Notes: a model not told the origin generated them from the letters alone. Shown: positions 3,895-54,585, counted from the first letter of the stretch. The stretch is DNA of 59,473 bases from Candidatus Moraniibacteriota bacterium (GCA_903893925.1 CAITOC010000010.1:1-59473), one strand, 5' to 3'. Program-made: numbers and translations.

Positions 3895-4079
3895 TGAAAA
3901 CGACCCGACTTCAAGAGGGCGATGCGTACGATTCGACGGCATTCGTCGCCTATCAAAATCACGACATGAACAAACGCATCATCCTGCTTTTCGAAGGCTA
4001 AACCTTCGGAAGAGAATCTCAAAAGACTTCCCATTCAATGTCGGTTTCTGCTACACTGTCGATAACAAATCGATCGGAT

Positions 4080-7000
4080 ATGAACAGCGGACGGGTTGCC
4101 ATCATTCCCACTCTTCTCACGCTCTCTTTTTTTGCGCTCTCAATTCCCTCTTTTGCCGACACAATATCCACTCCGGACGACGATGCACCGATTGCGGACA
4201 CGGGAGCGTCTTTTCCGAAGACAGACCCTGCCCTTCCGGTCGAAGATATCGATACGAAGGATGCCGTGATTCTTCCAACAGTGGCGGACGAACCGACACT
4301 ACCCGAACCGGGAAAGCCAGCCGGTGAACCTTCCGCCGATTCAGTTGAGGTCGTACCTGAAAGCGACCCATCTTCTGCCCATGAGTCGCTAAACGAACCA
4401 GCTTCATCCGCAGAGCCTCCGGTCGAAATTCCAGCATCAGAGCCAAAAATGACTCCTCCGGTCGAAGAAACGCCGACAGAAATTCCTCTCGGGACGGAAG
4501 AAGCCGATACTCCCCCGCCGGCCGGGCGCATGATGATGGCCCCGGCTATGCTGTTTGCAGCCGATTCCCCACCGGACACCATCATAAGCGAGGTGCAGAT
4601 AGCCGGTGATGACGCGAATGATGATTTTGTCGAACTCTACAATCCAGGCGATGCGGCATATTCATTGAAAGGATTTGAACTCCGGCGAAAAACCAAGGGT
4701 GATTCGACCCCTACTGGATCATTGTTTCATGCATTCTCGGATTCCGACAGCATACCGGGAAACGGATACTTTCTGTGGGCAAACAAAGATGGCACAGCGG
4801 CGTTCATCGCGATTGCCGACGTGATAAGCAAGAACAAAACATCTCCCGCATTGACCACGGATAACAGCCTTGCCCTGTTCAACTCGAGCAAAACGATGAT
4901 TGCCGCGCTTGCTTGGGGTTCGGGTCATACCAAGCCGTTTACGGCATCAAAAAATACGAATCCCGGAAAAAATCAGAGTCTCGTCTACGATGCCGATAAG
5001 GATTCCTGGTCGATTTCAGATTGTCCGACGCCGACGAACAGCAAAGGCGAAACACCCGATCCAAGCCCGGCCTGCAAGGATTCCGACCCGCCTCCTCCCA
5101 TCGGTACGATCGTCATCAACGAATTTCTCCCGTATCCGAACGCTGGTGAAGAAGAGTGGATCGAGCTTCGTAATACCGGGGTCGAGGAAATCAAACTTGC
5201 AGGATGGAAAATCCAAGACGCCTCAGGAAAGACGTATGCGTTTCCAAAAGCCACGGTCATCGCGGCTGGAGGATTCCTCGTTATCGATGGTTCAACGTCA
5301 TCCATCGCTCTCAATAATGCCGGAGCGGAAAGCGTCATCCTTCTGTTTCCAGACGGAAGTACTGCGGACTCGATATCTTATGACGGAACCGATCAAAACG
5401 TCGCATTCGCACGCACGGACACGGGAACATTCCTCCAGACACATACCCCGACCCGGGGTGCCATAAATGTCTTTGATCCCGAACCGGAGAAAGTCACGCC
5501 TCCTCCCATCGGCACAGTCATCATCAACGAATTTCTCCCGTATCCGAACGCTGGTGAAGAAGAGTGGATCGAGCTTCGTAATACCGGCGATACGGAAATA
5601 TCCCTTGCCGGATGGACGATGAAAGATGCCTCTTCAAGTGCCGGGTATACGTTCCCGGCAGGGACAGTCATAGTTGCGAACGGGTTTTTCATCCTCGGTG
5701 CGGAAACCTCGCTTATCGCACTTAATAATACCGGAGCCGAATCCGTCACGTTATCGTTCCCGGATAAAAGTGTCGCCGACACATATTCCTATGATGGAAC
5801 CGGGCAAGGAGCCACGTATGCACGCACGGACACGGGAACGTTCCTCCTCACGCATATACCGACTCCCAAAGCGACGAATACTTTTGATCCCGAACCGGAG
5901 AAAGTCACGCTTCCGCCGGTCGGCACAGTCATCATCAACGAGCTGTTCCCGAATCCGGCACAGAAGGGCGAGGAGAACGAATGGATCGAGTTGCGCAATA
6001 CCGGAAACATACCCGTCGCACTCGTCGGATGGATACTCCGGTCCGGATCCGGGAAGTTCACCTGGACGAACGACCTGTCGGCGACCCTCCGTGAGATTTC
6101 CGCGAACGGCTACCTCGTCATTGACCGTGCACTTTCGAAACTCGCGCTTCGCAATACCGACGGGGCCGTGACCCTCCTCGCGTCCGACGACATGACGACG
6201 ATGGATTCCGTCTCGTATGGTACGGCGATCGAGGAAGCCTCGTACGGACGGACTCTCTCCGGGACGTTCCGATGGAGCACGACCCTCACGCCGGGATACG
6301 AGAACGTATTTGGCACCGAACCGAAAGCAAAGAAGGCCTCCATTCCGAAGCAGGGGTATGTGAACGCATTCATACCGTTTTCGACGGACGGAAACAAGAA
6401 GAACCTGAAGTATGTCTGGGATTTCGGCGACGGTCACAAGAGTTACCTCGATACGACAAGCCATCGATATGAAAAGACCGGGACCTACGAGGGCACGCTC
6501 ACGACGAGTGACCGCATCGAAGAAACAGTGAGGACGTTCACGATACGGATCGAGAAATACCCGAGGCGCGACCTGCATCTGACCGAGCTTGCTCCCAACC
6601 CGGCCGGGACGGATACCGGCGCCGAGTGGATCAGGATCCGAAACGACGACGTGAAAAAAATAAACCTCTCCGGCTGGATCATCGCCACCGGCTCTGACAA
6701 GGAAAAACTCGTGAATCACGTCATCACTTCGAACCGTTCCCTCGCTCCCGGCGAAGAAATCGCTCTCACGCACGACGATGCGAAGTTCACCCTTCCCAAT
6801 CGGCAAGCCATCATCGAACTGCGTCGACCCGACGGCAAGACCGTACAAACAGTCTCGTATGATGTGGAAAAGGACGTCGCCGAAAATGCCATCTATACCG
6901 AAGTCGGCGATGACACCTGGACCTGGTCGGTTCCGTCGATGAAAGACGTGGACATCGCTCCGGCACCGGAAGAAACGACTGCCGAAACCGTGACGGACAC

Positions 7001-7223
7001 GGCACCATACGAACCAGGACTCTCCGTCGACCCGGATTCGGACCGGCTCACCTTCGGCGAGTTCGTCTCCCTCGGCACGCCATACGATCCCGATCTTCCC
7101 GACGCCCTCCCCCGCGTCCTCGGCGCTTCGGATGAACGACTCCGAAGTGATATGTCATCCTCCGAATCATTTCTCGACTCGCTGTTCCGGGCGCTCAACG
7201 GGTTCATGACGGGAACGACGTGA
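4080..7223 (+). CDS. Secreted surface protein with five lamin-tail domains (LTD) and one PKD domain
   Basis: Signal-like N-terminus from the ATG at 4080 (MNSGRVAIIPTLLTLSFFALSIPSFA). LTD signatures repeat (VIINEFLPYPNAGEEEWIELRNTG x2, INELFPNPA..NEWIELRNTG, ELAPNPAGTDTGAEWIRIRN, FVELYNPG). A PKD motif is present (WDFGDGHKS..HRYEKTGTYEGTL). Confidence 0.85.
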   Translation: MNSGRVAIIPTLLTLSFFALSIPSFADTISTPDDDAPIADTGASFPKTDPALPVEDIDTKDAVILPTVADEPTLPEPGKPAGEPSADSVEVVPESDPSSAHESLNEPASSAEPPVEIPASEPKMTPPVEETPTEIPLGTEEADTPPPAGRMMMAPAMLFAADSPPDTIISEVQIAGDDANDDFVELYNPGDAAYSLKGFELRRKTKGDSTPTGSLFHAFSDSDSIPGNGYFLWANKDGTAAFIAIADVISKNKTSPALTTDNSLALFNSSKTMIAALAWGSGHTKPFTASKNTNPGKNQSLVYDADKDSWSISDCPTPTNSKGETPDPSPACKDSDPPPPIGTIVINEFLPYPNAGEEEWIELRNTGVEEIKLAGWKIQDASGKTYAFPKATVIAAGGFLVIDGSTSSIALNNAGAESVILLFPDGSTADSISYDGTDQNVAFARTDTGTFLQTHTPTRGAINVFDPEPEKVTPPPIGTVIINEFLPYPNAGEEEWIELRNTGDTEISLAGWTMKDASSSAGYTFPAGTVIVANGFFILGAETSLIALNNTGAESVTLSFPDKSVADTYSYDGTGQGATYARTDTGTFLLTHIPTPKATNTFDPEPEKVTLPPVGTVIINELFPNPAQKGEENEWIELRNTGNIPVALVGWILRSGSGKFTWTNDLSATLREISANGYLVIDRALSKLALRNTDGAVTLLASDDMTTMDSVSYGTAIEEASYGRTLSGTFRWSTTLTPGYENVFGTEPKAKKASIPKQGYVNAFIPFSTDGNKKNLKYVWDFGDGHKSYLDTTSHRYEKTGTYEGTLTTSDRIEETVRTFTIRIEKYPRRDLHLTELAPNPAGTDTGAEWIRIRNDDVKKINLSGWIIATGSDKEKLVNHVITSNRSLAPGEEIALTHDDAKFTLPNRQAIIELRRPDGKTVQTVSYDVEKDVAENAIYTEVGDDTWTWSVPSMKDVDIAPAPEETTAETVTDTAPYEPGLSVDPDSDRLTFGEFVSLGTPYDPDLPDALPRVLGASDERLRSDMSSSESFLDSLFRALNGFMTGTT
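7113..7189 (+). repeat. 77-nt direct repeat (copy 1) forming the present 3' end of the LTD gene
   Basis: 7113-7162 is identical to 8936-8985 (50 nt), and 7173-7189 is identical to 8996-9012. The pair flanks the ilvC-like gene. Confidence 0.85.
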
Positions 7224-7247
7224 CTCCAAATACTGCTGAAACATTGA

Positions 7248-7284
7248 AAGCGGGAGAGCAATTTCTCTCCCGCTTTCGGTTTTT
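7248..7284 (+). terminator. Rho-independent terminator after the LTD gene
   Basis: Stem AAGCGGGAGAG / CTCTCCCGCTT with loop caattt, followed by TCGGTTTTT. Confidence 0.55.
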
Positions 7285-7301
7285 ACGATCAGAACAATGT
7301 C

Positions 7302-8783
7302 TCAGCCGACATACAGATCTTCTTTCGGAACCAGTTCCAGGCATGTTGCAAGCGACGAGTGAACCGGGTGACCGACAAAGAGCTGGAAAAGAGGCGATCC
7401 AAGAACGCTTTCCGGATTGTTACTGAAATCTTGCAGTACGTCTCCCCAAAGAGAAGACATGAATCGTGGACCCCATTTTTTGGCACCAAGCTGAGCCGTC
7501 GGAGAACAACTGTGAACCATGAAACCCACACCTTTGGCATGCATGAGCGGATTGAGCGACTTGATAGCCTCGATGATCGACTCAAAACAAACTTCAGTCC
7601 ACCAGTGACCATGATCGTGGAGCACATCAACCTGCGCCATCATGATACCGGCGTACAGCCCTGCGACCATCGGGTCGATTACCTTCTCGAAATTCTCACG
7701 GTTCTGGCGGACCCGTTCACCGACAGCCCACATCTCACCGATATCGACCCGCTCCATTGGATGTTCCCTGAGTTGATTCCCGCGCTCGACAACCTCCCGG
7801 ATTTCGTCCCCGGATTCCACCGAAGCGTAGATATCCTCAATCAGTTCCTTCGCCGGACCGTATACCGAAACATATGCCCTGGCAAATATTTTCTGCTCGC
7901 TTCCCGGGAGACCACTATAGAGCCCCAGCAGTCCGCCATGCCGAGAAATGCGATCACTGATCGGACCGGTAATACTTTCTACAGCCAGATTGAACGCCTC
8001 TTCCTCACTGAAGCCAAGTTCGATGAAACGTCGATACGCCATTTCAGCGAGCGCCCAAACGGCGCCAAGCAAGATAGCCCGCTCGCCGGTCAGATCACTC
8101 AAGAACTCCTTCCTGAGCGTCGTAAAGGAACTCAGCGGTGCACCGAGCTGAATTGCCCATGCGATTGCCACATCCAGAGCGCCACCAAGATCGCACTCCA
8201 CCGCGATAGAGCACGGGATACCGGCCCCATTCGTTTCACGACCCTGTTCATACCACAAACGGACGGACGTTCCTACCCCCTTGGGACAGACACCGATCAC
8301 ACTGATGTTGTCCGGGAAATATTCCCCGACGCTCAGCAGGTGACCGAGCAGGAATCCATGCGCGAGACCGAGAATAGCCCCCAATCGCAACGCCGCGAAT
8401 ATCTTCTTATACAGCCGGACTTGCTCCGAATCCGGGATAAGCAATATCACGAAATCGGATTCCGCGATAACGGCGAATGTCTCACCGAGCGTGCCATCCT
8501 TTTCCGTAAAGCCTGCCGCCCTTGCCTTCTGCCGGGAGCCGCTTTCTTCGGGAAGGCCGACTTTTACGACGATACCGGAGCCGACGAGCGATTCGCGAAG
8601 ATTCAGCGCATGAGCGTGTCCCTGCGAACCGAAACCGATAACGGCGATCTGTCTGATTCCTGCCGCACGGAAAACACGGGTCGCGGTGGGGAACATGTCC
8701 CTGCCGCCGACGACGATCCATTCAGCCGCTCCGGGAAACACGAGTTTCCGCATCGGGAAGATATTTGATTGAAAATGATTCAT
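7302..8783 (-). CDS. ilvC: Ketol-acid reductoisomerase, long class II (plant-like) form
   Basis: Start set at ATG 8783, preceded by AGGAGG with a 9-nt spacer. Motifs: VIGFGSQGHAHALNLRES, LGLAHGFLLGHL, VCPKG, SDLTGERAILLG. At ~493 aa it has the length of a class II enzyme with a duplicated C-terminal domain. Confidence 0.85.
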   Translation of the reverse strand: MNHFQSNIFPMRKLVFPGAAEWIVVGGRDMFPTATRVFRAAGIRQIAVIGFGSQGHAHALNLRESLVGSGIVVKVGLPEESGSRQKARAAGFTEKDGTLGETFAVIAESDFVILLIPDSEQVRLYKKIFAALRLGAILGLAHGFLLGHLLSVGEYFPDNISVIGVCPKGVGTSVRLWYEQGRETNGAGIPCSIAVECDLGGALDVAIAWAIQLGAPLSSFTTLRKEFLSDLTGERAILLGAVWALAEMAYRRFIELGFSEEEAFNLAVESITGPISDRISRHGGLLGLYSGLPGSEQKIFARAYVSVYGPAKELIEDIYASVESGDEIREVVERGNQLREHPMERVDIGEMWAVGERVRQNRENFEKVIDPMVAGLYAGIMMAQVDVLHDHGHWWTEVCFESIIEAIKSLNPLMHAKGVGFMVHSCSPTAQLGAKKWGPRFMSSLWGDVLQDFSNNPESVLGSPLFQLFVGHPVHSSLATCLELVPKEDLYVG

Positions 8784-8935
8784 TATGAAGCGCCTCCTGT
8801 TTTTCGACACGGATAAGACCGTGCCTCTGTTAACGAAAAGACCAAGCCCCCGCTTGATTGCAGGAAAATCCTAACAAAAAAGCCTCTCTCCGTCAAGTAA
8901 AAGCACTCGAGCTTAAAGTTTCATTCTTTCAGCCT

Positions 8936-9079
8936 CGCGTCCTCGGCGCTTCGGATGAACGACTCCGAAGTGATATGTCATCCTCTGAGTGGCCTCTCGA
9001 CTCGCTGTTCCGACTGTTGAATTCAACCTGTCTCGAAACCTGGCCGGGGCGACATGACTCTATCCGCGTTATCTATTGA
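8936..9079 (+). pseudogene. Displaced alternative 3' end of the LTD gene (copy 2 of the 77-nt repeat, open to a stop at 9077-9079)
   Basis: Translates as RVLGASDERLRSDMSSSEWPLDSLFRLL...VIY*, matching the present LTD C-terminus RVLGASDERLRSDMSSSESFLDSLFRAL. It has no start codon or upstream gene body. Confidence 0.6.
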
Positions 9080-9090
9080 GAGAGACATAT

Positions 9091-9127
9091 AAAAAAGCCG
9101 CGGTGCTGTTGACCTAACGGCTTTTGT
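9091..9127. terminator. Bidirectional hairpin terminator (A-run / AAGCCG..CGGCTT / T-run)
   Basis: Stem arms 9095-9100 and 9118-9123, flanked by aaaaaa and ttttgtt. It lies after the displaced LTD end (+) and after the 9136 gene (-). Confidence 0.45.
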
Positions 9128-10066: not shown

Positions 10067-10558
10067 CTAACCGTATAATCCATTTTTCAGTGCTTGCCGT
10101 TCTTTCAACAGCGCCGCGATGAAAATTTTCTCGGGAAGCGACGTGTTGGGATGTTCAGGACCGACATCATGATAGATGAAGTCCTCTTCGGTCGCGAGCA
10201 ACGCCTCTTGAACCTTGGTATTCTGCGCCACTTTCTCCCGGATGAACTCCCGGATAAGTTGCTGATGTTCCGAAGAATTATATTCGTACCGTTCCCCCTG
10301 CCAATAGACGAACGCCGGGACGTCTTTTCGAATGAACTTCGTCACTTCCCGGCCTTTCTTCATCGCCTGCATCCCCTTCATGGCAAAAACCTCGTTTCGC
10401 GTCTTCTCATCCTCGAATTTGATGCCTTGCAGTGCCGCCTCGACACACGGGAATGTGATCCCTTCGATCGTAAACGGGGTATGAGCGAGGTTGGACAGTA
10501 TCTTCGCCCGCCAGTCTTTCGAATCGGACCGGATATTCACTCGTGCTATGGTCATCAT
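10067..10558 (-). CDS. NADAR (YbiA/DUF1768)-like domain protein
   Basis: ORF trimmed to ATGATG at 10558/10555, preceded by GAGGAGGG. LSNLAHTPFTIEGITFPCVEAALQGIKF resembles the YbiA motif FSNFAAWPIKVDGKTWPTSEHYFQAQKF, and ALLAT resembles ALLLAT. The usual E-H pair reads V-E-A here. Confidence 0.5.
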   Translation of the reverse strand: MMTIARVNIRSDSKDWRAKILSNLAHTPFTIEGITFPCVEAALQGIKFEDEKTRNEVFAMKGMQAMKKGREVTKFIRKDVPAFVYWQGERYEYNSSEHQQLIREFIREKVAQNTKVQEALLATEEDFIYHDVGPEHPNTSLPEKIFIAALLKERQALKNGLYG

Positions 10559-10920
10559 TCCCTCCTCTTTTGCGTTTATTGCGGTTATTAATGAATAACG
10601 CATGATAGCAGACGAGCGGAGACTGTCAACGGATGAGGCGACCTCGAAGTAAAAAACCGCAACTGGAATATCAGCTACGGTCCTTACGACTATCCTCCGG
10701 GTTTTCATTCGATCGCGAAAACGGTGGACGTTCTCCAATAGCCTTCCTCGTCCTGGGGAAGAAACCACATGTTTTTCCCGAGAGAAAGGTAGAGAATGAC
10801 ACACCGACTGAAAGGAAGCGGCTTATTATCACGGACGATGGTCCGTATGCCGTTCTCATCCGCCGTGCCAAACCGATACCACAAAAAAAGAGACCCAATG
10901 CGGGTCTTTTTTTTCCTAAT

Positions 10921-10952
10921 GAGCGGGTAACGGGAATTTCGTCCTCGACGCC
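10921..10952 (-). repeat. Copy of the last 17 nt of tRNA-Gly(CCC) plus 15 nt of the tRNA-Gly-associated module
   Basis: gagcgggtaacgggaat matches 11150-11166 and 11348-11364. It is preceded by a copy of the tRNA's downstream terminator hairpin (10888-10915). Confidence 0.7.
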
Positions 10953-11154
10953 CTATCTCAGAATAAACTACCCCGTGGCAAGCCGCGAGGTATCCTCCGA
11001 CTTGTCATCCCGGACTTGATCCGGGATCCAGTCCCACTCCGTGAGACATATCCGCGGCAAGCCGCGAGGAATTAACCCTAAAAGAGATTAAATCTCTAGG
11101 CGGGCCGCCCTGTGGGCGAGCCTCGCTCAAAATTTTCTCCGAAAATTTTGAGCG

Positions 11155-11299
11155 GGTAACGGGAATTTCGTCCTCGACGCCTGCTGACGTCTCGTTGTCC
11201 AGGGCAGCGCTGAATGCTTCCTATCCGGTCGCATTCATCGACGCTCGACTGCGGCGCCTCCGCTTGCGTCTCGCTTCTGCCCGTTCGATTCCCGTTACC
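11155..11299. repeat. 145-bp stem-loop element bounded by 12-bp inverted repeats made of tRNA-Gly T-arm/acceptor sequence
   Basis: GGTAACGGGAAT at 11155-11166 pairs with ATTCCCGTTACC at 11288-11299. The interior 11167-11246 is almost identical to 20966-21045. Confidence 0.6.
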
Positions 11300-11348
11300 A
11301 CAAAGAAAGCAAAAGAGGCCCGATGCGGGTCTCTTTTGCTTTCCTATG

Positions 11349-11419
11349 AGCGGGTAACGGGAATCGAACCCGTGTCCCTAGCTTGGGAAGCTAGTGTACT
11401 ACCATTGTACTATACCCGC
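11349..11419 (-). tRNA. tRNA-Gly(CCC)
   Basis: The reverse complement is GCGGGTATAGTACAATGGTAGTACACTAGCTTCCCAAGCTAGGGACACGGGTTCGATTCCCGTTACCCGCT. It folds as a cloverleaf with anticodon loop TTCCCAA and has no encoded CCA. Confidence 0.9.
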
Positions 11420-13260: not shown

Positions 13261-13416
13261 AGAATCTTCGGAAGAGAAGAAGTCTTTTTTCGGCGTCCGT
13301 AATAGGCTGATTCGGGGTTGAAACTTATCCCAAGGAATGCTACGCTCGATATGGAATATTAAGACTCCCAGTTATCTGTTATTAGTTCTCTGTCGGGAGT
13401 TCTTCCCATACTGCCC

Positions 13417-13560: not shown

Positions 13561-15303
13561 ATGCCTTACGACCTCTCCACTGTCCGCCACTCCCTTGCGC
13601 ACATCCTCGCAATGGCCATTCTCAAGCGTGATCCGGGGGCAACACTCGGCACCGGGCCCTCGACCGAGGACGGTTTTTTCTACGATATCCTTTTTTCTGA
13701 GGGACAAAACGTCTCTCCAGACGATTTCAAGTCGATCATCGAAGATATGCGCTCGATCGTGAAAAAGAAGCTCCCGTTCGTCCAAAGATTACTGACCGCG
13801 GATGAAGCTCGGGAGCTCTTCAAAAAAAATCCGTTCAAGCTCGAAATCATCGGTGAAGCCGAGTCACGTGGCGAAGACATCACCATATTTGAGACGGGCG
13901 ATTTCGTCGATCTGTGTGCCGGACCGCATGTCGAGAACACGGGCGACATCGATTTACTCTCCTTCTCACTCAAGGGTCTTGCCGGTGCGTACTGGCGTGG
14001 CGACGAGCAGAATCCGATGCTGGTCCGTATCTCGGGGTTCGCCTTCGAAAACAAGTCCGCCCTCGTCGCGCATCTCGCTTTGCTCGAAGAAGCCAAAAAA
14101 CGCGATCACCGTAAACTCGGAAAGGAACTCAATCTCTTCACCATTTCCCCGCTCGTGGGCGCGGGACTTCCGCTCATGCAGCCCAAAGGCATGATCATCC
14201 GCCAGAAGATCGAAGATCTTCTCTGGAAACTCCACGAGGACAAGGGCTATTCACGCGTCTGGACCCCGCATATCGCGAAGGAAGAGCTCTATGTCACGTC
14301 CGGACATGCCGCCAAGTTCGGCGACGAACTCTTTCGCGTCACAGGCAAGGAAGAACAGTTCATCATGAAGCCGATGAACTGCCCGCACCACATGCAGATC
14401 TTCGCGGACAACCGGTTCTCGTATCGCGATCTCCCGGTCCGCTATTTCGAGCCGGCTACCGTGTATCGTGACGAAAAATCCGGCCAGCTCGGAGGCCTCA
14501 CCCGCGTGCGTGCCATCACCCAAGATGACGGTCATCTTTTCTGTCGTGTCTCACAAATCAAGGAGGAGGTCTCGACTATCGTCTCGATCATCCGGGAATT
14601 TTACACGATCTTCGGACTCATGGACGGGTATTGGGTCTCACTCTCGGTCCGAGGCGAGGATAAGGAAAAATACCTGGGCAGTGATGAGGCATGGGACAAT
14701 GCCGAGAGCGCGCTTGAGAACGCTGCCAAGGAGAACGATCTCAATTACAGACGGGTCGAGGGTGAGGCCGCCTTCTACGGACCCAAGCTCGACTTCATGT
14801 TCAAGGACGCCATCGGCCGGGAATGGCAACTCGCTACCATTCAGTGCGACTTCAACCTGCCCGAGCGCTTCGACCTCTCGTTCACGAACGAAGAGGGCGT
14901 AGCCGAGCGTCCGGTCGTGATACATCGTGCCATCTCGGGTTCGCTCGAGCGGTTCATGGGTATCATGATCGAGCACTATGCCGGTGCATTCCCCTTCTGG
15001 CTTTCCCCGGTCCAAGTCGATATCCTCCCGATCGGTGAGGCTCATCAGGCGTACGGAGCCGAAGTCACGACACTCCTCAAGAAGGCCGGTATCCGTACCG
15101 AACTCCATGCTGAGAACGAATCCCTCGGCAAGCGCATCCGCAATGCCAAAGTCGGCAAAGTGCCGTACTATATCGTCTTAGGCGACGCGGAAGTCACGAG
15201 CCAAACCGTCACTCTCGAAAGCCGCACCGACGGCAAGATCGGCGAACTCTCCCACGACGACCTCCTTACGCGATTTGCAAAGGAAAATATCCCCGCTGCC
15301 TGA
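13561..15303 (+). CDS. thrS: Threonine--tRNA ligase lacking the N-terminal TGS domain
   Basis: ORF trimmed to ATG 13561 (MPYDLSTVRHSLAHILAMAI). Starts at the editing-domain HxxxH motif. Class II core motifs are present (FIMKPMNCPHH, LTRVRAITQDDGHLF, GEAAFYGPKLDF). Confidence 0.92.
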   Translation: MPYDLSTVRHSLAHILAMAILKRDPGATLGTGPSTEDGFFYDILFSEGQNVSPDDFKSIIEDMRSIVKKKLPFVQRLLTADEARELFKKNPFKLEIIGEAESRGEDITIFETGDFVDLCAGPHVENTGDIDLLSFSLKGLAGAYWRGDEQNPMLVRISGFAFENKSALVAHLALLEEAKKRDHRKLGKELNLFTISPLVGAGLPLMQPKGMIIRQKIEDLLWKLHEDKGYSRVWTPHIAKEELYVTSGHAAKFGDELFRVTGKEEQFIMKPMNCPHHMQIFADNRFSYRDLPVRYFEPATVYRDEKSGQLGGLTRVRAITQDDGHLFCRVSQIKEEVSTIVSIIREFYTIFGLMDGYWVSLSVRGEDKEKYLGSDEAWDNAESALENAAKENDLNYRRVEGEAAFYGPKLDFMFKDAIGREWQLATIQCDFNLPERFDLSFTNEEGVAERPVVIHRAISGSLERFMGIMIEHYAGAFPFWLSPVQVDILPIGEAHQAYGAEVTTLLKKAGIRTELHAENESLGKRIRNAKVGKVPYYIVLGDAEVTSQTVTLESRTDGKIGELSHDDLLTRFAKENIPAA

Positions 15304-16089: not shown

Positions 16090-16123
16090 AGGAGTTCGAC
16101 TCCCTATAGGGAGTCGAACTCCT
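16090..16123. repeat. 15-bp-stem palindrome AGGAGTTCGACTCCC tata GGGAGTCGAACTCCT
   Basis: A second copy lies at 34644-34679. The arm AGGAGTTCG is shared with the ~90-nt repeat family. Confidence 0.6.
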
Positions 16124-16145
16124 TTATTTCTTTTTATCGTAAGTT

Positions 16146-18917: not shown

Positions 18918-19012
18918 AGAGATTCCATTCGATACTGCCAGTATCCGACATTTTTGGAGAAAAATCAATATATATACCTCGGAGCAGAGCCCTGAGGTAT
19001 GTCTCGAATGAA

Positions 19013-19130
19013 CCAAACCGTCACCCTCGAGAGCCGTGCCGACGGCAAGATCGGCGAACTCTCCCACGACGACCTTCTTACGCGATTTGCAAAAGAGAAC
19101 ATCCCGGGAGCCTGCGTTCCCCTGAAATAA
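19013..19130 (+). pseudogene. Displaced 3' fragment of thrS (last ~38 codons, own stop)
   Basis: 19013-19105 aligns with 15201-15293. It translates as QTVTLESRADGKIGELSHDDLLTRFAKENIPGACVPLK*, against QTVTLESRTDGKIGELSHDDLLTRFAKENIPAA* in the live gene. Confidence 0.8.
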
Positions 19131-19177: not shown

Positions 19178-19261
19178 TAAAGTCCTCTACAAAACAGGGT
19201 CGTGAGAGATTCCCTGTTATCTGTTATCTGTTATCTTCTCCCTGCTAACGGTCATCTATTC

Positions 19262-20797: not shown

Positions 20798-20953
20798 CTC
20801 AGTCCTCCTTTGTTGACGAATTGATAAAGAATCTGACTTCCCTCTCCGACAGGACACGGTATCGCGAAATGACGCGAACGTCAAGAAAAATCGCATACCG
20901 AACATTCTTCTGCCCGTTCGATTCTCATTACCGTAAGTAAACAAAAGAGAATT

Positions 20954-21045
20954 GGTGATGGGAATTTCGTCCTCGACGCCTGCTGGCGTCTCGTTGTCCA
21001 GGGCAGCGCTGAATGCTTCCTATCCGGTCGCATTCATCGACGCTC
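20954..21045 (-). repeat. 92-nt tRNA-Gly-associated module (3' 12 nt of tRNA-Gly(UCC) plus 80-nt conserved cargo)
   Basis: It differs from 11155-11246 at 3 positions by my alignment. Two of these track the acceptor/T-stem difference between the two tRNA-Gly genes. Confidence 0.7.
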
Positions 21046-22380: not shown

Positions 22381-22477
22381 GGAATCGCCCCGCATACGCG
22401 GGGCGCCCGGCGAATGCCCGGGCGAACCGAGACTACCTACTCCCAAGGCAGGCGTACTACCACTATACTATGCCCCG
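22381..22477 (-). pseudogene. Disrupted duplicate of tRNA-Pro(UGG): 55-nt identical 5' part, 37-nt double-hairpin insert in the T-loop, non-pairing 3' end
   Basis: 22423-22477 is identical to 22262-22316. The insert cgccccgcatacgcggggcgcccggcgaatgcccggg occupies 22386-22422. The downstream CCAAACTCGTGGC cannot pair with the T-stem or acceptor 5' strands. Confidence 0.7.
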
Positions 22478-26717: not shown

Positions 26718-26807
26718 ATACCAAATGAACTGAATCACTGTTACGTTCAGGAGTTCGCCCCGGCATTCGCGGGGCGGACTCCTCCGGTAGCGATATACAA
26801 CACATCA
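26718..26807 (+). repeat. ~90-nt hairpin repeat family, copy A
   Basis: ATACCAAATGAACTGAATCACTGTTACGTTCAGGAGTTCGCCCCGGCATTCGCGGGGCGGACTCCTCCGGTAGCGATATACAACACATCA. An inverted ATTTGGTATC at 26833-26842 mirrors its 5' end. Confidence 0.8.
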
Positions 26808-26844
26808 AGTTATTTCGGCATAATTTAATTAATTTGGTATCACT

Positions 26845-27590: not shown

Positions 27591-27680
27591 ATACCAAATT
27601 AACTAAATCCCTGTTACGTTCAGGCGTTCGCCCCGGCATTCGCAAGGCGAACTCCTCTGATAGCGATATTCAACACATCA
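27591..27680 (+). repeat. ~90-nt hairpin repeat family, copy B (between tig and clpP)
   Basis: ataccaaattaactaaatccctgttacgttcaggcgttcgccccggcattcgcaaggcgaactcctctgatagcgatattcaacacatca. The reverse complement of its 5' end, extended into the flank, gives TGGTATAAC about 11 nt upstream of the clpP ATG. Confidence 0.8.
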
Positions 27681-27693
27681 CATTCCTTCGATA

Positions 27694-30283: not shown

Positions 30284-30504
30284 AGTGTTACTGATATTGT
30301 CACGCTTCCGAATATATCGGAACGCGACACTGTTTAATGACGTATGAATCACACGGAAGCAAGTTGGAGACGGGTCTCTTTTTGAACCGAGAACGGCCCT
30401 CTAAAGAAAAAAGTCCGCTCGCGCGAACTCCGTCACCATCCCTATCCGTATGACCACAGTATAGGGCGAAACGGGACTTCTGTCAAATGGCTGAAGTATG
30501 GATA

Positions 30505-30574
30505 ATACCAAATGAACTGAATCACTGTTACGTTCGGGAGTCGGACTCCTCCGGTAGCGATATACAACACATCA
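30505..30574 (+). repeat. ~90-nt hairpin repeat family, copy C (hairpin tip deleted)
   Basis: ataccaaatgaactgaatcactgttacgttcgggagtcggactcctccggtagcgatatacaacacatca. Confidence 0.8.
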
Positions 30575-30748
30575 CGTTTTATCGGAATACGTTCCACTTG
30601 CAACAATCTTACAAGACCATTACCGGAGCTCACCCCGCCCTTCGTGAAGAGCATGGCGAACTCCGCTCAGATTATTTAGTTGAATAATGCCTTTTAAAAG
30701 CCATAATCCGTCAATTTTTGTCCGATTTTCCATTTTCTCACACATTGA

Positions 30749-33139: not shown

Positions 33140-34093
33140 TTATGCCGTTCCCGAAAGGAGCGCGGTGACAGTGCGGACAACGATGAGTGACAAGACGATG
33201 ACCGCGATACCCATGATTGCGAATTTCACGATACTCTTGGCCGTTTCGGCACGTTTCTCGTCACCTGCGGCGGCAAAGAACATGAATCCGCCGATGACGA
33301 GCATGATCATCGCGAGCAGTCCCGAAACGCCGAGAAGGAAGTTCAGGAGACCCTGGACGATTTCGACCACGGACTTGGCGCTGCTCACCTCGGTCGGCAC
33401 CTGCGCACTCCCCCATCCGAGTACGTCGCCGACCGCCTTAAGCAAAGACGGTGCGACCACGCCGATCGCGAGGCCGATCATCGCCGCGGTAATCATCTTC
33501 TTGGCAGTACCGATCTTCTTCTCATCGCCGGCCGACGTGATATAGAAGATGCCACCGAGCACGAGGAAGAGCAGTGCGAGCCAGACGATGATACCCTGGA
33601 AGGCCGTGAGGAACACCGCCGTCGCCCCCTGGACGGTATCGAATGCGAGTGGATTCGTGAATGTGACGGAAGAAGTGCCTCCGCCCGTCGTGCCGGTTCC
33701 GCAACATATCTGGCTCGCCGAAGTGCAGGTTCCCGATTGTATCGTCAGGCCTCCCGTACAGGTAGTCCCCGTCTGGCATGTCCCCGTACAGGCACCGCCA
33801 ACAGTCCCATAGGTGGCATCATAATTGGCATCGGGGACGGTAGCGAGAGGCGTGGCCGTCACGCCATATTGGAACTTCGGACGACCGGAACACTGTGAGT
33901 TACAAAGCTTCTGCGTATCCTCGAAAGAGGAAGAGTCTACCGTGGTGCCATCGGCCTGCACACAGGCGCAATTCATTCCCGCCGGCATGGTTGCCGCGAA
34001 AGCGGTCATCGGGACGACACCTGAGAAAAGAAAAACGAGCGAACCAAAAAGAAAGAAAGCAGAGCGAACGGATGATGGGATATTTGTATGCAT
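33140..34093 (-). CDS. Fused double T4SS-type (TrbC/VirB2-like) pilin with Cys-rich N-terminal head
   Basis: Signal peptide, then a Cys-rich ~130-aa region (CACVQADGT..CNSQC..), then two tandem two-helix pilin units, each centred on an (S/A)AGDEK(K/R) loop (YITSAGDEKKIGTAKK and FFAAAGDEKRAETAKS). Confidence 0.7.
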   Translation of the reverse strand: MHTNIPSSVRSAFFLFGSLVFLFSGVVPMTAFAATMPAGMNCACVQADGTTVDSSSFEDTQKLCNSQCSGRPKFQYGVTATPLATVPDANYDATYGTVGGACTGTCQTGTTCTGGLTIQSGTCTSASQICCGTGTTGGGTSSVTFTNPLAFDTVQGATAVFLTAFQGIIVWLALLFLVLGGIFYITSAGDEKKIGTAKKMITAAMIGLAIGVVAPSLLKAVGDVLGWGSAQVPTEVSSAKSVVEIVQGLLNFLLGVSGLLAMIMLVIGGFMFFAAAGDEKRAETAKSIVKFAIMGIAVIVLSLIVVRTVTALLSGTA

Positions 34094-34151
34094 ATTTTTT
34101 GATAAAACGTCCCGTAAGAAACGACTGCGAAAAAATATCGACTGGTATCAA

Positions 34152-34583
34152 TCAATAGGTCGTCGTCGAGGAACTTGCCGTGACGAGTTGCTCTATGGTG
34201 TAGACGACTACATAACCGAGGAGCGCGACCGCGACACCGATAATCGCATATTTGATATTCCCTTTTGCTGCTTCGGTCCCCTTCTCATCACCACCGGCCG
34301 TAAGGTATTGGAATCCGGCCACCACGAACATGATGATGGCGATAAATCCGAGCATGCCGAGGAGCCAGTTCATGACATTGGTAATCACCTGTCCCGCCGA
34401 CGTTTCCGGCAGGCCGGTCGACGTGCCGGAGGGGACGCAGACTCCGCCCATGGCAGTACTGTTGGCATCGCAGGTCACCGCGGCAAGAGCGCCGTGCGAT
34501 GCGAGGACCGCCGATACGAGGACCACGAGAGACAGGATACGAAGGCCGATCAGTCTGAGTGTTTTGGTATGATATACGTTCAT
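34152..34583 (-). CDS. T4SS-type (TrbC/VirB2-like) pilin
   Basis: ORF trimmed to ATG 34583 (signal MNVYHTKTLRLIGLRILSLVVLVSAVLASHGALA). Core NVMNWLLGMLGFIAIIMFVVAGFQYLTAGGDEKGTEAAK. Ends ...SSSTTTY. Confidence 0.7.
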   Translation of the reverse strand: MNVYHTKTLRLIGLRILSLVVLVSAVLASHGALAAVTCDANSTAMGGVCVPSGTSTGLPETSAGQVITNVMNWLLGMLGFIAIIMFVVAGFQYLTAGGDEKGTEAAKGNIKYAIIGVAVALLGYVVVYTIEQLVTASSSTTTY

Positions 34584-34643
34584 ATTTTTGTCTTCGATCG
34601 TCATCGACAGATGAAACTTTTTTGCTTGATCGATCCTGTACGC

Positions 34644-34679
34644 AAGGAGTTCGACTCCCTCTTGGGAGTCGAACTCCTT
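34644..34679. repeat. 16-bp-stem palindrome AAGGAGTTCGACTCCC tctt GGGAGTCGAACTCCTT
   Basis: Same arms as 16090-16123. It lies between two pilin genes. Confidence 0.6.
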
Positions 34680-34810
34680 ATAGGTGGTATACGGCAAACC
34701 AAATTATTTTAGCATGGGAGCGATCTTCCCATTCATCATACCGCACGGACAAAAAAAGACAACCCCGCTCATGCGGAGTCGCCCTCTTTTCTTGTTGTTG
34801 CCGACCGGAA

Positions 34811-35212
34811 TCAGTAACTGGTAGTGGCGGTGTTGGCTCCGAGGAGTCCGACCACCGTGTTGATGACCACATACCCGACAAGCGCCACGACGACAGCGAT
34901 GATGGCATACGTCATCATCGTCTTCGCCTTCTCGGTCTTTCCCTCGTCGCCGGCGGCGGTAAGATAGAGGATGCCCGCTATGACGAAAGAAATGATCGCA
35001 CCGATGCCGAGGATTCCCAGCACCCAGTTCATGACGGTAGTCAGGATCTGGCCGATGGAATTCTGAGTCATCCCACTGGAACTTGCCACGGAACTATATG
35101 AACTTCCGGTTCCGGGAACTGTTCCGAATCCATTTGTTTGTGCAAAAACCGATACCGGCGCCGCGAGTGTCGCGACGAGAACGCCATATCCGATTTGTTT
35201 CATTGATTTCAT
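34811..35212 (-). CDS. T4SS-type (TrbC/VirB2-like) pilin
   Basis: ORF trimmed to ATG 35212, preceded by AGGAGGTGA. Signal MKSMKQIGYGVLVATLAAPVSVFA. Core VMNWVLGILGIGAIISFVIAGILYLTAAGDEGKTEKAK. Ends ...NTATTSY. Confidence 0.7.
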   Translation of the reverse strand: MKSMKQIGYGVLVATLAAPVSVFAQTNGFGTVPGTGSSYSSVASSSGMTQNSIGQILTTVMNWVLGILGIGAIISFVIAGILYLTAAGDEGKTEKAKTMMTYAIIAVVVALVGYVVINTVVGLLGANTATTSY

Positions 35213-35255
35213 GCGTTCACCTCCTTTCCGTTTTGTGATTGTTTCGACGCGTTCA

Positions 35256-35540
35256 TCATACCATATCCGCAAGGGTCCGAACAATGATGAGCGCCGTAGC
35301 GACTACCGCCACGCCGATGACCGAATAGATCATAGCCTGCTTCGCCTGTTTCATGGCCGACTCGTTTCCTTGGGACGCAATGTAGAGAAACCCGGACACC
35401 GCGAATGAAAGCATCCCGACCACCCCGACTGCACCAAGGATGAATCCGAGTATGTTCGAGATGATCGTCGAGATCGGGACCGCGTCCTCGATCACGCCGG
35501 CGGCATGAACGACGGTCACGAACGAGAGAAATGCATGCAT
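35256..35540 (-). CDS. Short T4SS-type pilin paralogue
   Basis: 94 aa. ISNILGFILGAVGVVGMLSFAVSGFLYIASQGNESAMKQAK followed by a second helix. Confidence 0.65.
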   Translation of the reverse strand: MHAFLSFVTVVHAAGVIEDAVPISTIISNILGFILGAVGVVGMLSFAVSGFLYIASQGNESAMKQAKQAMIYSVIGVAVVATALIIVRTLADMV

Positions 35541-37514: not shown

Positions 37515-37767
37515 AGAGTTTGGTTTCGATATTTCGGAAGACGCATCCGTCCCGCAAGCCGCTCCGACACTTCCATGACCGGATAGTGGACACGTTCTCT
37601 CAAATATAGTACAACAAATAAAGGCGAAATGAAAGGGAGAACGCTTCTCCAACTTCGTAAAGCCGCAAGAGCTTCGCTGAGTTTCAATGGTCTTCTCAGC
37701 TTCCTTGAGAAAAGGGTTGAAAAGGGAGAAATGGGATTCCAAGCAAAAGGGAAAGGGCTCCCGTTTT

Positions 37768-37874
37768 CTGTTGACTGTTCGTTATCGGTTGTTAGTTGTT
37801 AGTTGTGCATTGTTAGTGGTTAGTTATCAGTTGTTAGTTGTTAGTTGTTAGTTGTTAGTTGTCAGTTGTCAGTC
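37768..37874 (+). repeat. Degenerate heptanucleotide tandem array (GTTAGTT / GTCAGTT units, about 13 units)
   Basis: ...gttagttgttagttgtgcattgttagtggttagttatcagttgttagttgttagttgttagttgttagttgtcagttgtcagtc, ending 8 nt before tRNA-Ser. Confidence 0.8.
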
Positions 37875-38232: not shown

Positions 38233-38506
38233 ATAAAAAATGGGATTGCGCGTTGCATCGCAATCCCATACCAACTTACAGACCTCAATCTCCCGCCGGA
38301 TTTTCGTGGTTTTTCGGCTGGATTCCGTCTACGAAAATTCCGCCTTCAATCATGCGGGGTGCTATTTAAAGGACGACTCCATCTCGCCCGGAGACAAGAC
38401 TTCTCAGTCTCGCACCTATCCTCTGCACGCATAACCTAGCGTTCGACCGCCGAAAGGGTTTCGAACCCCTTCTGCCCTCAAACCCAGAACGTTGTTATCA
38501 GTCTGC
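38233..38506 (-). ncRNA. Candidate ~270-nt small RNA of unknown class
   Basis: Minus-strand promoter-like TTGACA-17 nt-AATAGT (38513-38541). Strong minus-strand terminator (hairpin 38241-38268 plus T6). Internal hairpins are present (for example CGGAATTTTCGT..ACGAAAATCCG). There is no ORF of 60 aa or more on that strand. Confidence 0.3.
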
Positions 38507-44603: not shown

Positions 44604-44689
44604 ATACCAAATGAACTGAATCACTGTTTCGTTCAGGAGTTCGCCCCGGCATTCGCGGGGCGAACTCCTCTGGTAGCGATATAACACAT
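44604..44689 (+). repeat. ~90-nt hairpin repeat family, copy D
   Basis: ataccaaatgaactgaatcactgtttcgttcaggagttcgccccggcattcgcggggcgaactcctctggtagcgatataacacat. A 14-bp stem AGGAGTTCGCCCCG/CGGGGCGAACTCCT is present. Confidence 0.8.
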
Positions 44690-44729
44690 TAGGTTGTTTC
44701 GGTATAAGTTGTCAGTTGTCAGTCTTCCT

Positions 44730-53711: not shown

Positions 53712-53715
53712 AGAA

Positions 53716-54402
53716 TCAACGGTTGGAAAGTTCCACTTGATCGATATTTCGCATGATGGTCGTCGTAAAGACCGAAGGATTGTACGTGTTGTACAAAAGT
53801 TCGATAAGCTCCTCGGTGCCAAGCATGCTCGTCCGGACACCGGTACCCGAAAGCGCGGCGGAAACCTGTTCGGCCCGTTGCAAAAGCTGGTTCCGATATG
53901 TCTCGAACTCTCCACCGGGAATCACCGTACCCGTTTTCGGCTGAAGCATTCCGGTCAGCTTCCCTATCAATCCACCATCTTGTGTTTCCGACGGAGCGAA
54001 TGGGATTACGACATAAAAGAATTTCGACATGATATTCGATACCTCGGTCAGGCTTTGCACGAAATTCCGGTACTCCGAGATCTGAAATCGAAGCAGTTCG
54101 TTTTCCTGATGTTTTTCCTGCTCCGCGAGAGACTCAAGGTACGGCTCGATATGAAACCGCCTGGAATGCACCACGATCTGAAGCGGGAAATCGAGCGAGT
54201 TTAGAAATCCTTGATACTGCCCGATGATGGCATCCTGTTCTTCGCTTGATTTAAGATCGAAGTTGATGGAAGAAGCAAGTAAAACACAACGGATCGATCC
54301 GTTGCGAAGCACGATGACGCCGTCGCGTACGTCCTTGACGTCCACGTACTTCTGCGTGCTCGATGCGTCCGACACGGTTTTTTTCGGCGTAAGAAATTCC
54401 AT
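53716..54402 (-). CDS. Stand-alone protein resembling the N-terminal domain of Gram-positive VirB4/TraE ATPases
   Basis: DVKDVRDGVIVLRNGSIRCVLLASSINFDLKSSEEQDAII parallels the N-terminal pattern of VirB4-like proteins (I.dG.i....g.y..ile..pinf.l.seeEq). Confidence 0.5.
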   Translation of the reverse strand: MEFLTPKKTVSDASSTQKYVDVKDVRDGVIVLRNGSIRCVLLASSINFDLKSSEEQDAIIGQYQGFLNSLDFPLQIVVHSRRFHIEPYLESLAEQEKHQENELLRFQISEYRNFVQSLTEVSNIMSKFFYVVIPFAPSETQDGGLIGKLTGMLQPKTGTVIPGGEFETYRNQLLQRAEQVSAALSGTGVRTSMLGTEELIELLYNTYNPSVFTTTIMRNIDQVELSNR

Positions 54403-54585
54403 AGATTCCGTTTATATTCATTTCTTCGTTCCTCAACTCGTGACTTCGTTCCCGTTGTAAGTAATAAGTGGTCAGTTGTCAGTTTTTTGACTTTCGCCCT
54501 CGTAAAGCCTCTCCGACTCGGCCACGGGGCATGTTTTTGACTTGCGACCTTACGGACTTTACAGACCTTGTGGACTTTCAACTCC
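54403..54585 (-). repeat. Oriented intercistronic module (GACTT array + 35-nt conserved hairpin core + GTCAGTT heptamers), copy 1
   Basis: The core 54497-54532 matches 55169-55203 with 3 mismatches by eye. GAC starts fall at 54539, 54546, 54555, 54564 and 54573 (spacing 7, 9, 9, 9). Confidence 0.7.

Follow-up and report, generated by a model that had tools for sequence, protein, structure and literature searches.

A multi-unit cassette array behind the 3' end of a surface-protein gene in Moranbacteria

How does a protein-coding gene come to end twice, with a single gene of another kind lying between the two ends? The question is raised by a stretch of DNA of 59,473 nucleotides from Candidatus Moraniibacteriota bacterium (GCA_903893925.1 CAITOC010000010.1:1-59473; this whole stretch is referred to here as the window), in which the 3' end of a gene for a surface protein with LTD domains (the LTD gene) recurs on the far side of an antisense gene for a class II ketol-acid reductoisomerase (KARI). 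Comparison of the window with contigs from near-identical strains and from related lineages allows it to be said with high confidence that positions 7110-9079 are one unit of a multi-unit cassette array located behind the LTD gene in Moranbacteria, which belong to the candidate phyla radiation (CPR). The finding is real, and is more general than was described in the initial annotation, which had been made from the sequence of the window alone. Each unit consists of a 3' fragment of the LTD gene, of unit-specific length and ending with its own last 10-21 codons and stop, followed in most units by a hairpin terminator and then by one or two cargo genes, which are antisense to LTD and have a promoter of their own. 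In the first unit the fragment is fused in frame to the body of the LTD gene and so provides the C-terminus of the protein, and the fragments of later units persist as silent, displaced tails.

The repeat pair and the gene between its copies

A repeat search of the window returned an 80-nt direct repeat, 7110-7189 and 8933-9012, with 73 of 80 positions identical (91%). A mismatch at 7112/8935 is followed by 50 nt of exact identity (7113-7162), a diverged zone of 10 nt (CGAATCATTT versus TGAGTGGCCT in the two copies) and a further 17 nt of exact identity (7173-7189/8996-9012). By our own arithmetic, the chance expectation of an exact 50-nt match in 59 kb is ~1e-21. The features of the unit and its borders are listed below, where labels of the type L019 are our own and denote related contigs.

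4038..7223, plus strand: LTD/PKD surface-protein gene, the body carrying the tail of the first unit; open reading frame (ORF) of 1061 codons, with matches to Pfam LTD (1e-78, five stretches) and PKD_4 (3e-12)
7110..7189, plus strand: repeat copy 1, in frame within the LTD ORF and coding for ...PRVLGASDERLRSDMSSSESFLDSLFR; positions 81-160 of the LTD-tail nhmmer model
7190..7223, plus strand: K-type tail ALNGFMTGTT* (GGCGCTCAACGGG), the working LTD C-terminus in the window strain; homologous tail beside KARI in L019, L022, L025 and L020_B
7239..7284, no strand assigned: terminator K, a bidirectional intrinsic terminator that serves the convergent LTD and KARI genes; inverted repeat with U-run, dG -27.5 kcal/mol, z -7.3
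7302..8783, minus strand: cargo gene for a class II KARI (ilvC-like) of 493 aa; KARI_N 4e-31, KARI_C 2e-34 (two stretches)
8784..8932, minus strand: KARI upstream region, with a promoter-like site at 8896-8868 (TTGACG-17-TAGGAT with TG; promoter scan)
8933..9012, plus strand: repeat copy 2, a displaced LTD core fragment with zone allele CTGAGTGGCCT; nhmmer E 1.8e-17, profile positions 81-170
9013..9079, plus strand: Z-type tail LLNSTCLETWPGRHDSIRVIY*, silent in the window and the working LTD C-terminus in empty-site strains (read through in L005, L007 and L008)
9091..9127, no strand assigned: hairpin terminator separating the Z tail from the 203-aa gene; dG -13.2 kcal/mol, z -2.5, terminator-like site at 9105-9121; kept in L046
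9136..9747, minus strand: gene of 203 aa, cargo paired with the Z tail (the next array unit); no Pfam match, 74% homolog in L046

The gene caller places the start of the LTD gene at 4080, giving a protein of 1047 aa, and the gene is likewise called at 1047 aa in public contigs. From copy 1 the reading continues to ...LFRALNGFMTGTT, and from copy 2, in the same frame, to ...LFRLLNSTCLETWPGRHDSIRVIY with a stop at 9077-9079; exactly one gene, KARI, lies between the copies and is antisense to LTD. The KARI protein has the architecture of a class II IlvC, namely an N-terminal Rossmann KARI_N domain and a duplicated, knotted KARI_C domain in a protein of ~490 aa, and its enzymatic activity is predicted. 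The K tail shows synonymous polymorphism among strains, and a motif located 5' of KARI, GGAAAA.CCTA.CAA.AA..CC, is conserved in L020, L022 and L025. A profile search revealed no third copy of the LTD tail in the window, and two junction motifs had no further copies there beyond those expected by chance. The fold of the repeat is unremarkable relative to shuffled sequence (z -1.0 and +0.3), and an Rfam scan of the window matched only tRNAs. Thus far the reading made from the sequence alone stands: the 50/10/17-nt pattern, a first copy that supplies the C-terminus, stop and terminator of the LTD protein, a second copy that leads in the same frame to a different, longer C-terminus and another hairpin, and a lone antisense class II KARI are all present as described, the full repeat being 80 nt in length.

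Site states among strains, arrays in other lineages and the thrS site

Contigs from near-identical strains were gathered via exact-protein look-ups of neighbouring genes, and are 99.2-99.9% identical to the window in the flanks. Three states of the site behind the LTD gene were encountered among them, with 9/17 of the contigs that were read carrying KARI, 4/17 carrying a gene of the AAA_33 family and 4/17 being empty. The KARI arrangement is identical in at least 13 contigs, which come from differing samples and bear differing assembly naming schemes. In empty-site strains (L005, L007 and L008, with flanks 99.2-99.4% identical) KARI is missing and copy 1 joins directly to the sequence that follows copy 2, such that the LTD gene takes the 8933-9079 version of its end, the protein terminates in ...VIY* and the 203-aa gene comes next. 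Two alleles of the 10-nt zone occur in these strains, GAATCATTT in L005 and L007 versus GAGTCGCCT in L008, which fits crossovers at differing positions. In the AAA_33 state (L006, L010-13 and L030) the site holds one antisense gene, encoding a kinase of 190 aa, and the unit has a terminator of its own; the first 26 nt of the LTD tail are as in the window (ALNGF[M/V]TGN*), and the displaced copy is just ~30 nt in length. Since the displaced tail in AAA_33 haplotypes differs from that of the window at 12 of ~80 positions, whereas the next kilobase holds only two differences, the block in these haplotypes must have been acquired from a more distant source by recombination.

Mosaicism was also observed away from the site. 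The NADAR/Phage_30_3 gene (10067-10804) has 17 mismatches within 52 nt at 10232-10284 between KARI and AAA_33 haplotypes, the haplotypes being otherwise ~99.7% identical, and small mismatch clusters likewise occur within the LTD gene, the population being a short-patch mosaic.

Beyond this species, arrays behind the LTD ortholog were found in at least six other Moranbacteria lineages and comprise between one and three units. The orders given below, which were derived from repeat and profile searches, are written in the orientation of the LTD gene, with a semicolon between units.

L020: LTD, tail A, DUF4325 and HATPase-like gene; tail K (157 nt, 88%), KARI; tail F, Fe-ADH
L022-24: LTD, tail K, KARI; tail F (101 nt, 80%), Fe-ADH
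L025/26: LTD, tail K, KARI; tail X, genes of 164 aa and 168 aa; tail X' ... Fe-ADH, NUDIX
L046: LTD, tail Z, homolog of the 203-aa gene (74%); tail MLNGFMTGTI*, NUDIX, Fe-ADH
L018: LTD, tail F, Fe-ADH
L059: LTD, NUDIX, Fe-ADH
L027/28: LTD, gene of 178 aa, AAA_33 homolog (59%)

The LTD tail is thus present in three copies at each of the L020 and L025 loci, and in two copies at L022, at L046 and in the window. Particular tails go with particular cargo. The K tail lies beside KARI in 5/5 lineages, and the terminator TGAAAGCGGGAGAG... accompanies KARI in four of the five (the window, L019, L020_B and L025_A), with that of L022 being different. The F tail (AAKSQTI*-like) and a terminator of sequence CCGGAGTCT... 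go with Fe-ADH in L018, L020 and L022; this tail is silent in L020 and L022, and is the working end of LTD in L018. The Z tail is paired with the 203-aa gene in both the window and L046, where the working LTD tail is LLNSTLLGTSAETT*, of which the Z tail of the window is the ortholog. In the window, a deletion of 1 nt shifts the frame of the Z tail just before the position of the L046 stop codon, and the frameshift is identical in all haplotypes of the window species. Because the frameshift is common to all of these haplotypes and the tail is intact in L046, sequence comparison suggests that it arose while the tail was silent, in which case the empty-site strains would be secondary deletions and the direction of change in this species would be deletion as opposed to insertion. 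Among genome contigs, a relative of the 203-aa gene (65% identity) was found in one distant metagenome-assembled genome (MAG) of Ca. Moraniibacteriota, L009, where it does not adjoin an LTD gene, and a scan of metagenome contigs gave no relatives.

Comparison with more distant LTD orthologs bears on the tail of copy 1. Orthologs P0001 and P0002 (61-64% identical) end in ...SESFLD[SA]LFRILNG[LF]A..., and the ALNGFMTGTT of copy 1 is similar to tails that are in use in distant orthologs, namely ILNGFATGKI, ILNGFAARTI and MLNSLATGTV. Since the distant orthologs share its tail type, the end provided by copy 1 is of the ordinary type for the family, and its interpretation as foreign sequence was rejected.

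KARI is similarly an established component of the locus. The proteins form a clade specific to Moranbacteria, with 66-78% identity within it and next matches at 51-54%, and the closest named homologs are from Candidatus Moranbacteria MAGs. In every member of the clade for which there is context, KARI is convergent with the LTD ortholog, and KARI with the K tail is found behind LTD in at least five lineages (the window, L019, L020, L022 and L025). L019, for example, aligns contiguously with window positions 6417-7396 at 70% nt identity, over a segment that spans the end of LTD, the terminator and the last 31 codons of KARI. Synonymous divergence (dS) of KARI between lineages is 0.84-1.77, with dN/dS of 0.11-0.16; as judged from these ratios the gene is under purifying selection and presumably functional. 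The between-lineage dS of 0.8-1.8 and the conserved synteny with LTD indicate that the KARI unit is a long-standing resident, and a recent acquisition of KARI was rejected on these grounds.

The same architecture is present at a second gene in the window, thrS, which encodes an essential aminoacyl-tRNA synthetase.

15198..15302, plus strand: thrS 3' end, repeat copy 1; 105 nt, 89% identical to 19010-19114
19010..19114, plus strand: displaced thrS 3' fragment, separated from copy 1 by four antisense genes

In L046 the order is thrS, an antisense AAA_14/DUF4143 ATPase gene and a displaced thrS end (109 nt, 83%). The ATPase genes of L046 and of L017, a contig from the window species, are 96% identical at the nucleotide level, with a dS of 0.15, whereas dS between the same two contigs is 0.80-1.06 for the flanking thrS, DUF4012 and FKBP genes, and this difference shows that the unit at the thrS site was transferred laterally. 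The block of 95% identity stops ~5 nt past the displaced thrS copy. Judged by these sequence comparisons, units of this kind pass from one lineage to another as separate blocks with the gene-tail repeat at their borders. The identity of L016 and L017 to the window ends at 19009, exactly where the displaced thrS copy has its left edge, and other content follows; an empty thrS site was not met among the contigs that were read.

Two contigs depart from the window in other ways at this locus. In L016 (GCA_903994715.1), position 19009 is followed by 668 nt of novel sequence and then by window position 34558 in reverse orientation, which fits either an inversion of ~15.5 kb or a chimeric join. In L031 (ERZ27313095), DciA, DnaN and DnaA come after the thrS islet, in the place of the displaced thrS end and FKBP.

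These comparisons alter part of the initial annotation and extend the rest. Its reading of KARI as an islet is not borne out in the sense of a recent insertion, given that at least five lineages share the gene, and its labels of surrogate and displaced original end are misleading, as the tail of copy 1 is of the ordinary ortholog type and that of copy 2 is a frameshifted ortholog of the L046 tail. Conversely, LTD genes that end in the copy 2 version, which it had suggested be sought in relatives, do exist in the empty-site strains, and recurrent use of the site is evident both from the AAA_33 gene in strains of this species and from other lineages, in which up to three copies of the LTD tail divide successive cargo units. 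As regards a single recurrent insertion mechanism acting at gene 3' ends, the shared architecture at thrS, in the window and in L046, is in its favour; a dedicated insertion enzyme is unsupported, with no recombinase found in the window ORFs scanned or in related loci and with left edges that vary by unit.

Movement of the units and comparison with known systems

Units of the array probably move by homologous recombination, an account that is given moderate confidence. The enzyme involved would most likely be the cell's general homologous-recombination machinery. Loss of a unit would follow from recombination between two tail copies, which would join the body of LTD to the tail of the next unit, as in the empty-site strains. 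Gain or exchange would take place when a circular molecule, comprising a tail fragment and cargo, enters through one crossover within the LTD sequence common to both, the previous tail being shunted outward. The present KARI, AAA_33 and empty states would then be products of repeat-mediated deletion together with exchange of units among strains, and the bias towards gene ends would reflect selection, since only integration via a fragment that includes the gene end keeps the target gene intact.

The edges of the units are informative in this regard. The left edges of displaced copies are unit-specific, at profile positions 18, 81, 114, 132, 150 and 153, and the copy upstream of KARI begins at position 81 in the window, L020 and L022, which implies that the left edge was inherited along with the KARI unit. 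In L025 the repeat between units comprises the tail and terminator, not the upstream core; together with the unit-specific edges this argues that there is no common left crossover point. Two candidate recombinase cores, a 7-bp inverted repeat (CTTCGGA-N8-TCCGAAG) and a palindrome (CGAGTCG-N5-CGACTCG), were rejected on account of being present in some alleles only and unconserved across lineages, and no inverted-repeat core is conserved between lineages. Neither the window ORFs that were scanned against Pfam nor the ~150 called genes of related loci, for which precomputed Pfam lists were used, contain a recombinase, integrase or resolvase domain. The nearest finds were an rve transposase of insertion sequence (IS) type, ~2 kb beyond the LTD start on its 5' side in L022 and L024, and an IS-like helix-turn-helix ORF identified by eye in L018. 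The phage collection that was searched contained no DNA similar to the cassette, and the plasmid collection only a chance-level match of 123 nt in a Streptomyces plasmid. The 17-nt block CTCGACTCGCTGTTCCG gave 14 matches in IMG/VR, none of which was longer than the 17-mer under profile search, as expected of chance. The variable edges, the absence of a conserved core or special fold and the failure to find a recombinase match the C-terminal displacement model for rhs genes (Jackson et al. 2009, PMC2935791), in which homologous recombination between core copies is proposed to excise a circular intermediate that takes along a core fragment and its tip as well as the genes in between. Insertion would then occur through one crossover in the recipient core, with the incumbent tip being pushed downstream and core fragments being left in variable lengths.

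Three other explanations have to be set against homologous recombination. It is extremely improbable that the repeats are an artefact of assembly or binning, brought about by chimeric joining of strain variants at the shared 80 nt, which the initial annotation had named as a concern. The assemblies are indeed metagenomic, with several co-existing haplotypes, and the variant contig L002 does jump between the copies of another, 92-nt, repeat. However, the finding of the same structure in at least 13 contigs, 20-61 kb in length and drawn from different samples, shows that it is not such an artefact, the seven differences between the copies are reproduced exactly in every contig, and independent lineages, in which KARI is 66-78% identical, have the same architecture. 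An account without mobility is also quite improbable. By this account the order LTD-KARI-Fe-ADH is synteny retained from an ancestor, old local duplications left the tail copies behind as relics, and deletions between the relics are all that distinguishes the strains; in keeping with it, KARI and Fe-ADH are found behind LTD in many lineages at high dS, deletions alone suffice to obtain most arrays from a single longer ancestral order, and empty-site strains are easily explained by deletion. It does not sit well with the presence of AAA_33 in the same slot of near-identical strains, with its own tail variant and a displaced Z tail that differ locally at 12 positions in 80 nt where the background is 0.1-0.3%, nor with the variable order of units, NUDIX being proximal to Fe-ADH in L046 and L059 and distal in L025, and L020 having an extra unit before KARI, nor with the lateral exchange of the thrS unit (dS 0.15 versus 0.80).

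The third explanation, that the units are non-autonomous integrative cassettes (cis-mobilizable or integron-cassette-like) which a site-specific recombinase encoded elsewhere integrates and excises at a core in the gene tail, around the LFRxLN codons and at an analogous site in thrS, is somewhat unlikely, and the points that weigh against homologous recombination are best considered alongside it. All displaced copies overlap at ~153-170 of the profile, the part coding for LFRxLN, where a fixed crossover core is possible, and in the window, L006 and L020 A/B alike the stretch of high identity between repeat copies stops at one particular codon, ...CTGTTCCG|. The structure of tail, terminator, antisense cargo and promoter is uniform in all lineages and has the same layout at an unrelated second gene, thrS; plain homologous recombination does not predict that cargo should be antisense to the target gene in all lineages. 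The unit at the thrS site crossed between lineages that share no more than 85% nucleotide identity in thrS, a level at which homologous recombination would be inefficient and a site-specific enzyme would have the easier task. Short repeats of a tRNA-Gly 3' end in the window are a classic integrase signature and, with a tRNA-Pro fragment, look like integrase footprints. The gene for a trans-acting recombinase may lie in another part of the genome, of which the negative search for an integrase covers only 59 kb. Moreover, neither circular forms nor junction reads nor free cassette contigs were encountered, all contigs with this KARI being 20-200 kb in length, and the model of homologous recombination has no account of the first formation of a brand-new unit, with new cargo and tail fragment. 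Against a site-specific enzyme, no such domain was detected in the genes scanned, the left edges differ by unit and in L025 the repeat is found on the right-hand side of the putative core, there is neither a lineage-conserved inverted-repeat core nor an attC-like fold of the repeat, and the empty-site strains have two junction alleles. A broader proposal, made by analogy with integrons, is that Moranbacteria, and perhaps other CPR bacteria, have a dedicated cassette-capture system in which the tail of a host gene would act as an attI-like docking site, the tail copy of the cassette as its attC-like counterpart and LTD and thrS as anchors, with no integrase in cis and with a recombinase supplied in trans that would carry cassettes both within a lineage and from one to another; this is considered rather unlikely.

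Whichever enzyme is responsible, the arrays are most readily compared with the orphan arrays of Rhs, CDI (contact-dependent inhibition) and MafB systems (PMC2935791; Poole et al. 2011, PMC3150448). In these also an intact gene is followed by dissociated 3'-core fragments with alternative C-terminal tips and downstream genes, the core fragments vary in length, as do those of the window family with the starting positions given above, and the tips are old, conserved and tied to the downstream genes, with the attached tip differing by strain. The LTD tails, in contrast, are of only 10-21 codons and have no toxin domain, and the cargo consists not of immunity genes but of enzymes and assorted other genes, namely KARI, Fe-ADH, NUDIX, an AAA_33 kinase, and DUF4325 together with a HATPase-like gene. 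Toxin tips with co-oriented cognate immunity genes were not encountered in the LTD arrays, and cargo at both LTD and thrS is always antisense, with its own promoter and terminator. The genes that serve as anchors here encode a CPR surface protein and an aminoacyl-tRNA synthetase that is essential, as opposed to polymorphic toxins, and it is turnover of cargo that appears to matter, not diversification of the target protein. The LTD array is, then, not a polymorphic-toxin locus, despite being Rhs/CDI-like in its working.

A further comparison is with integrase-encoding elements that insert at the 3' end of a protein-coding gene and bring a replacement end, which include phage 21 and e14 in icd of E. 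coli, and the streptococcal integrative and conjugative elements (ICE), integrative and mobilizable elements (IME) and cis-mobilizable elements (CIME) in rpsI, rplL, fda and other genes. They resemble the present units in having direct repeats, one of which lies over the target 3' end, a diverged homologous replacement end that keeps the gene intact, the old end at the far side, co-existing empty and occupied sites, and arrays that arise by tandem accretion. They differ in that the LTD and thrS units have no integrase or excisionase in or near the unit, are only 0.7-4 kb in length with one to four genes, and have varying edges without conserved core-type inverted repeats. Integron cassette arrays likewise consist of small, mostly single-gene units of miscellaneous function in one orientation, with a recombination-competent end sequence and with gain and loss at strain level. 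However, no intI, attI or attC was found in the window, and the repeat is not a folded imperfect palindrome; each cassette here has a promoter of its own and is oriented convergently with the anchor, the repeated element is the coding tail of the anchor, and the anchor itself is the 3' end of a structural gene. In the loci that were scanned, the array therefore lacks both the integrase that defines integrative elements and the intI and attC of integrons.

Insertion-duplication of the Campbell type, in which circular DNA with a 3'-terminal gene fragment integrates into the gene, is a laboratory principle of plasmid-integration genetics. It predicts the product that is seen, namely an intact gene, an insert and a displaced 3' fragment, and it accounts for the tolerance in essential genes such as thrS of only 3'- or 5'-terminal fragments. 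Outside of toxin systems, we know of no natural, conserved array built in this way in multiple lineages. A search of the literature on CPR genomic islands with direct repeats, and on Moranbacteria and KARI, found nothing relevant.

Other repeats in the window and biological meaning

Several further repeats were noted in the window. The 3'-terminal 18 nt of a tRNA-Gly gene (11348-11419) recur as short copies with shared sequence at 10920-10952, 11149-11181 and 20948-20980, and these resemble leftover att sites. At the tRNA-Gly spot L005, L007 and L008 have six extra genes, including an acetyltransferase and Exo_endo_phos, and in L007 and L008 the context beyond is also different. A direct repeat of 92 nt, 97% identical, is located at 11155-11246 and 20954-21045, beside tRNA-Gly(ccc) and tRNA-Gly(tcc); L002 joins 11246 straight to 20954 and is thereby without the 9.7 kb that hold DUF4012, thrS and the thrS islet, which may be a real excision or deletion or else a jump by the assembler. 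The 5' part of tRNA-Pro(tgg) is duplicated without mismatch over 55 nt (22262-22316/22423-22477), the copy being located 107 nt upstream of the intact gene and having an Rfam partial tRNA match at 22417-22470.

Intergenic heptamer repeats of the GTTGTTAGT/GTTATCT type, both tandem and dispersed, occur at 37763-37874, 13362-13400, 19207-19236, 44694-44723 and 54454-54483, the largest block being just upstream of tRNA-Ser. A dispersed intergenic repeat of ~100 nt with a GC-rich palindromic core is found at 26718-26817, 27591-27690, 30503-30589 and 44604-44703, and allied palindromes at 16090-16124, 34645-34679 and 38437-38471; it has no Rfam match, a related copy lies between LTD and KARI in L022, and it could be an element of the MITE (miniature inverted-repeat transposable element) or REP (repetitive extragenic palindrome) kind or a terminator module. 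The window also encodes three proteins with type IV secretion system (T4SS) pilin domains and a TraG/VirB4-like P-loop ATPase (33140-35284 and 51243-53915), which, on the basis of their sequences, may be part of an apparatus for DNA transfer or uptake and possibly relevant to the travel of cassettes between cells. Finally, in L029 (JGI 3300045974) a distant AAA_33 homolog, 45% identical, stands in a long co-directional run of small accessory genes, among them methyltransferases, HD-domain proteins, glyoxalase/Ble-like, RibD_C and SelR genes, which looks cassette-array-like.

CPR bacteria have very small genomes, and the gain and loss of accessory genes in them is poorly understood. The locus described here represents a concrete and repeatable route, in which recombination at a gene tail adds, removes or swaps single genes without harming the anchor. 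The architecture is already known for polymorphic toxin loci such as Rhs and CDI; here it carries enzymes and defence-like genes, is used at two anchors, occurs across lineages and is still active at strain level, and it yields a search rule for flexible genes in MAGs, namely a duplicated gene 3' end. The polymorphism of the site among strains provides a natural experiment on the role of an orphan ilvC-type enzyme in an organism which, from what is generally known of CPR metabolism, is presumed to be unable to make branched-chain amino acids. If true, a tail-docked system with a recombinase in trans would constitute a new class of gene-acquisition platform for minimal genomes.

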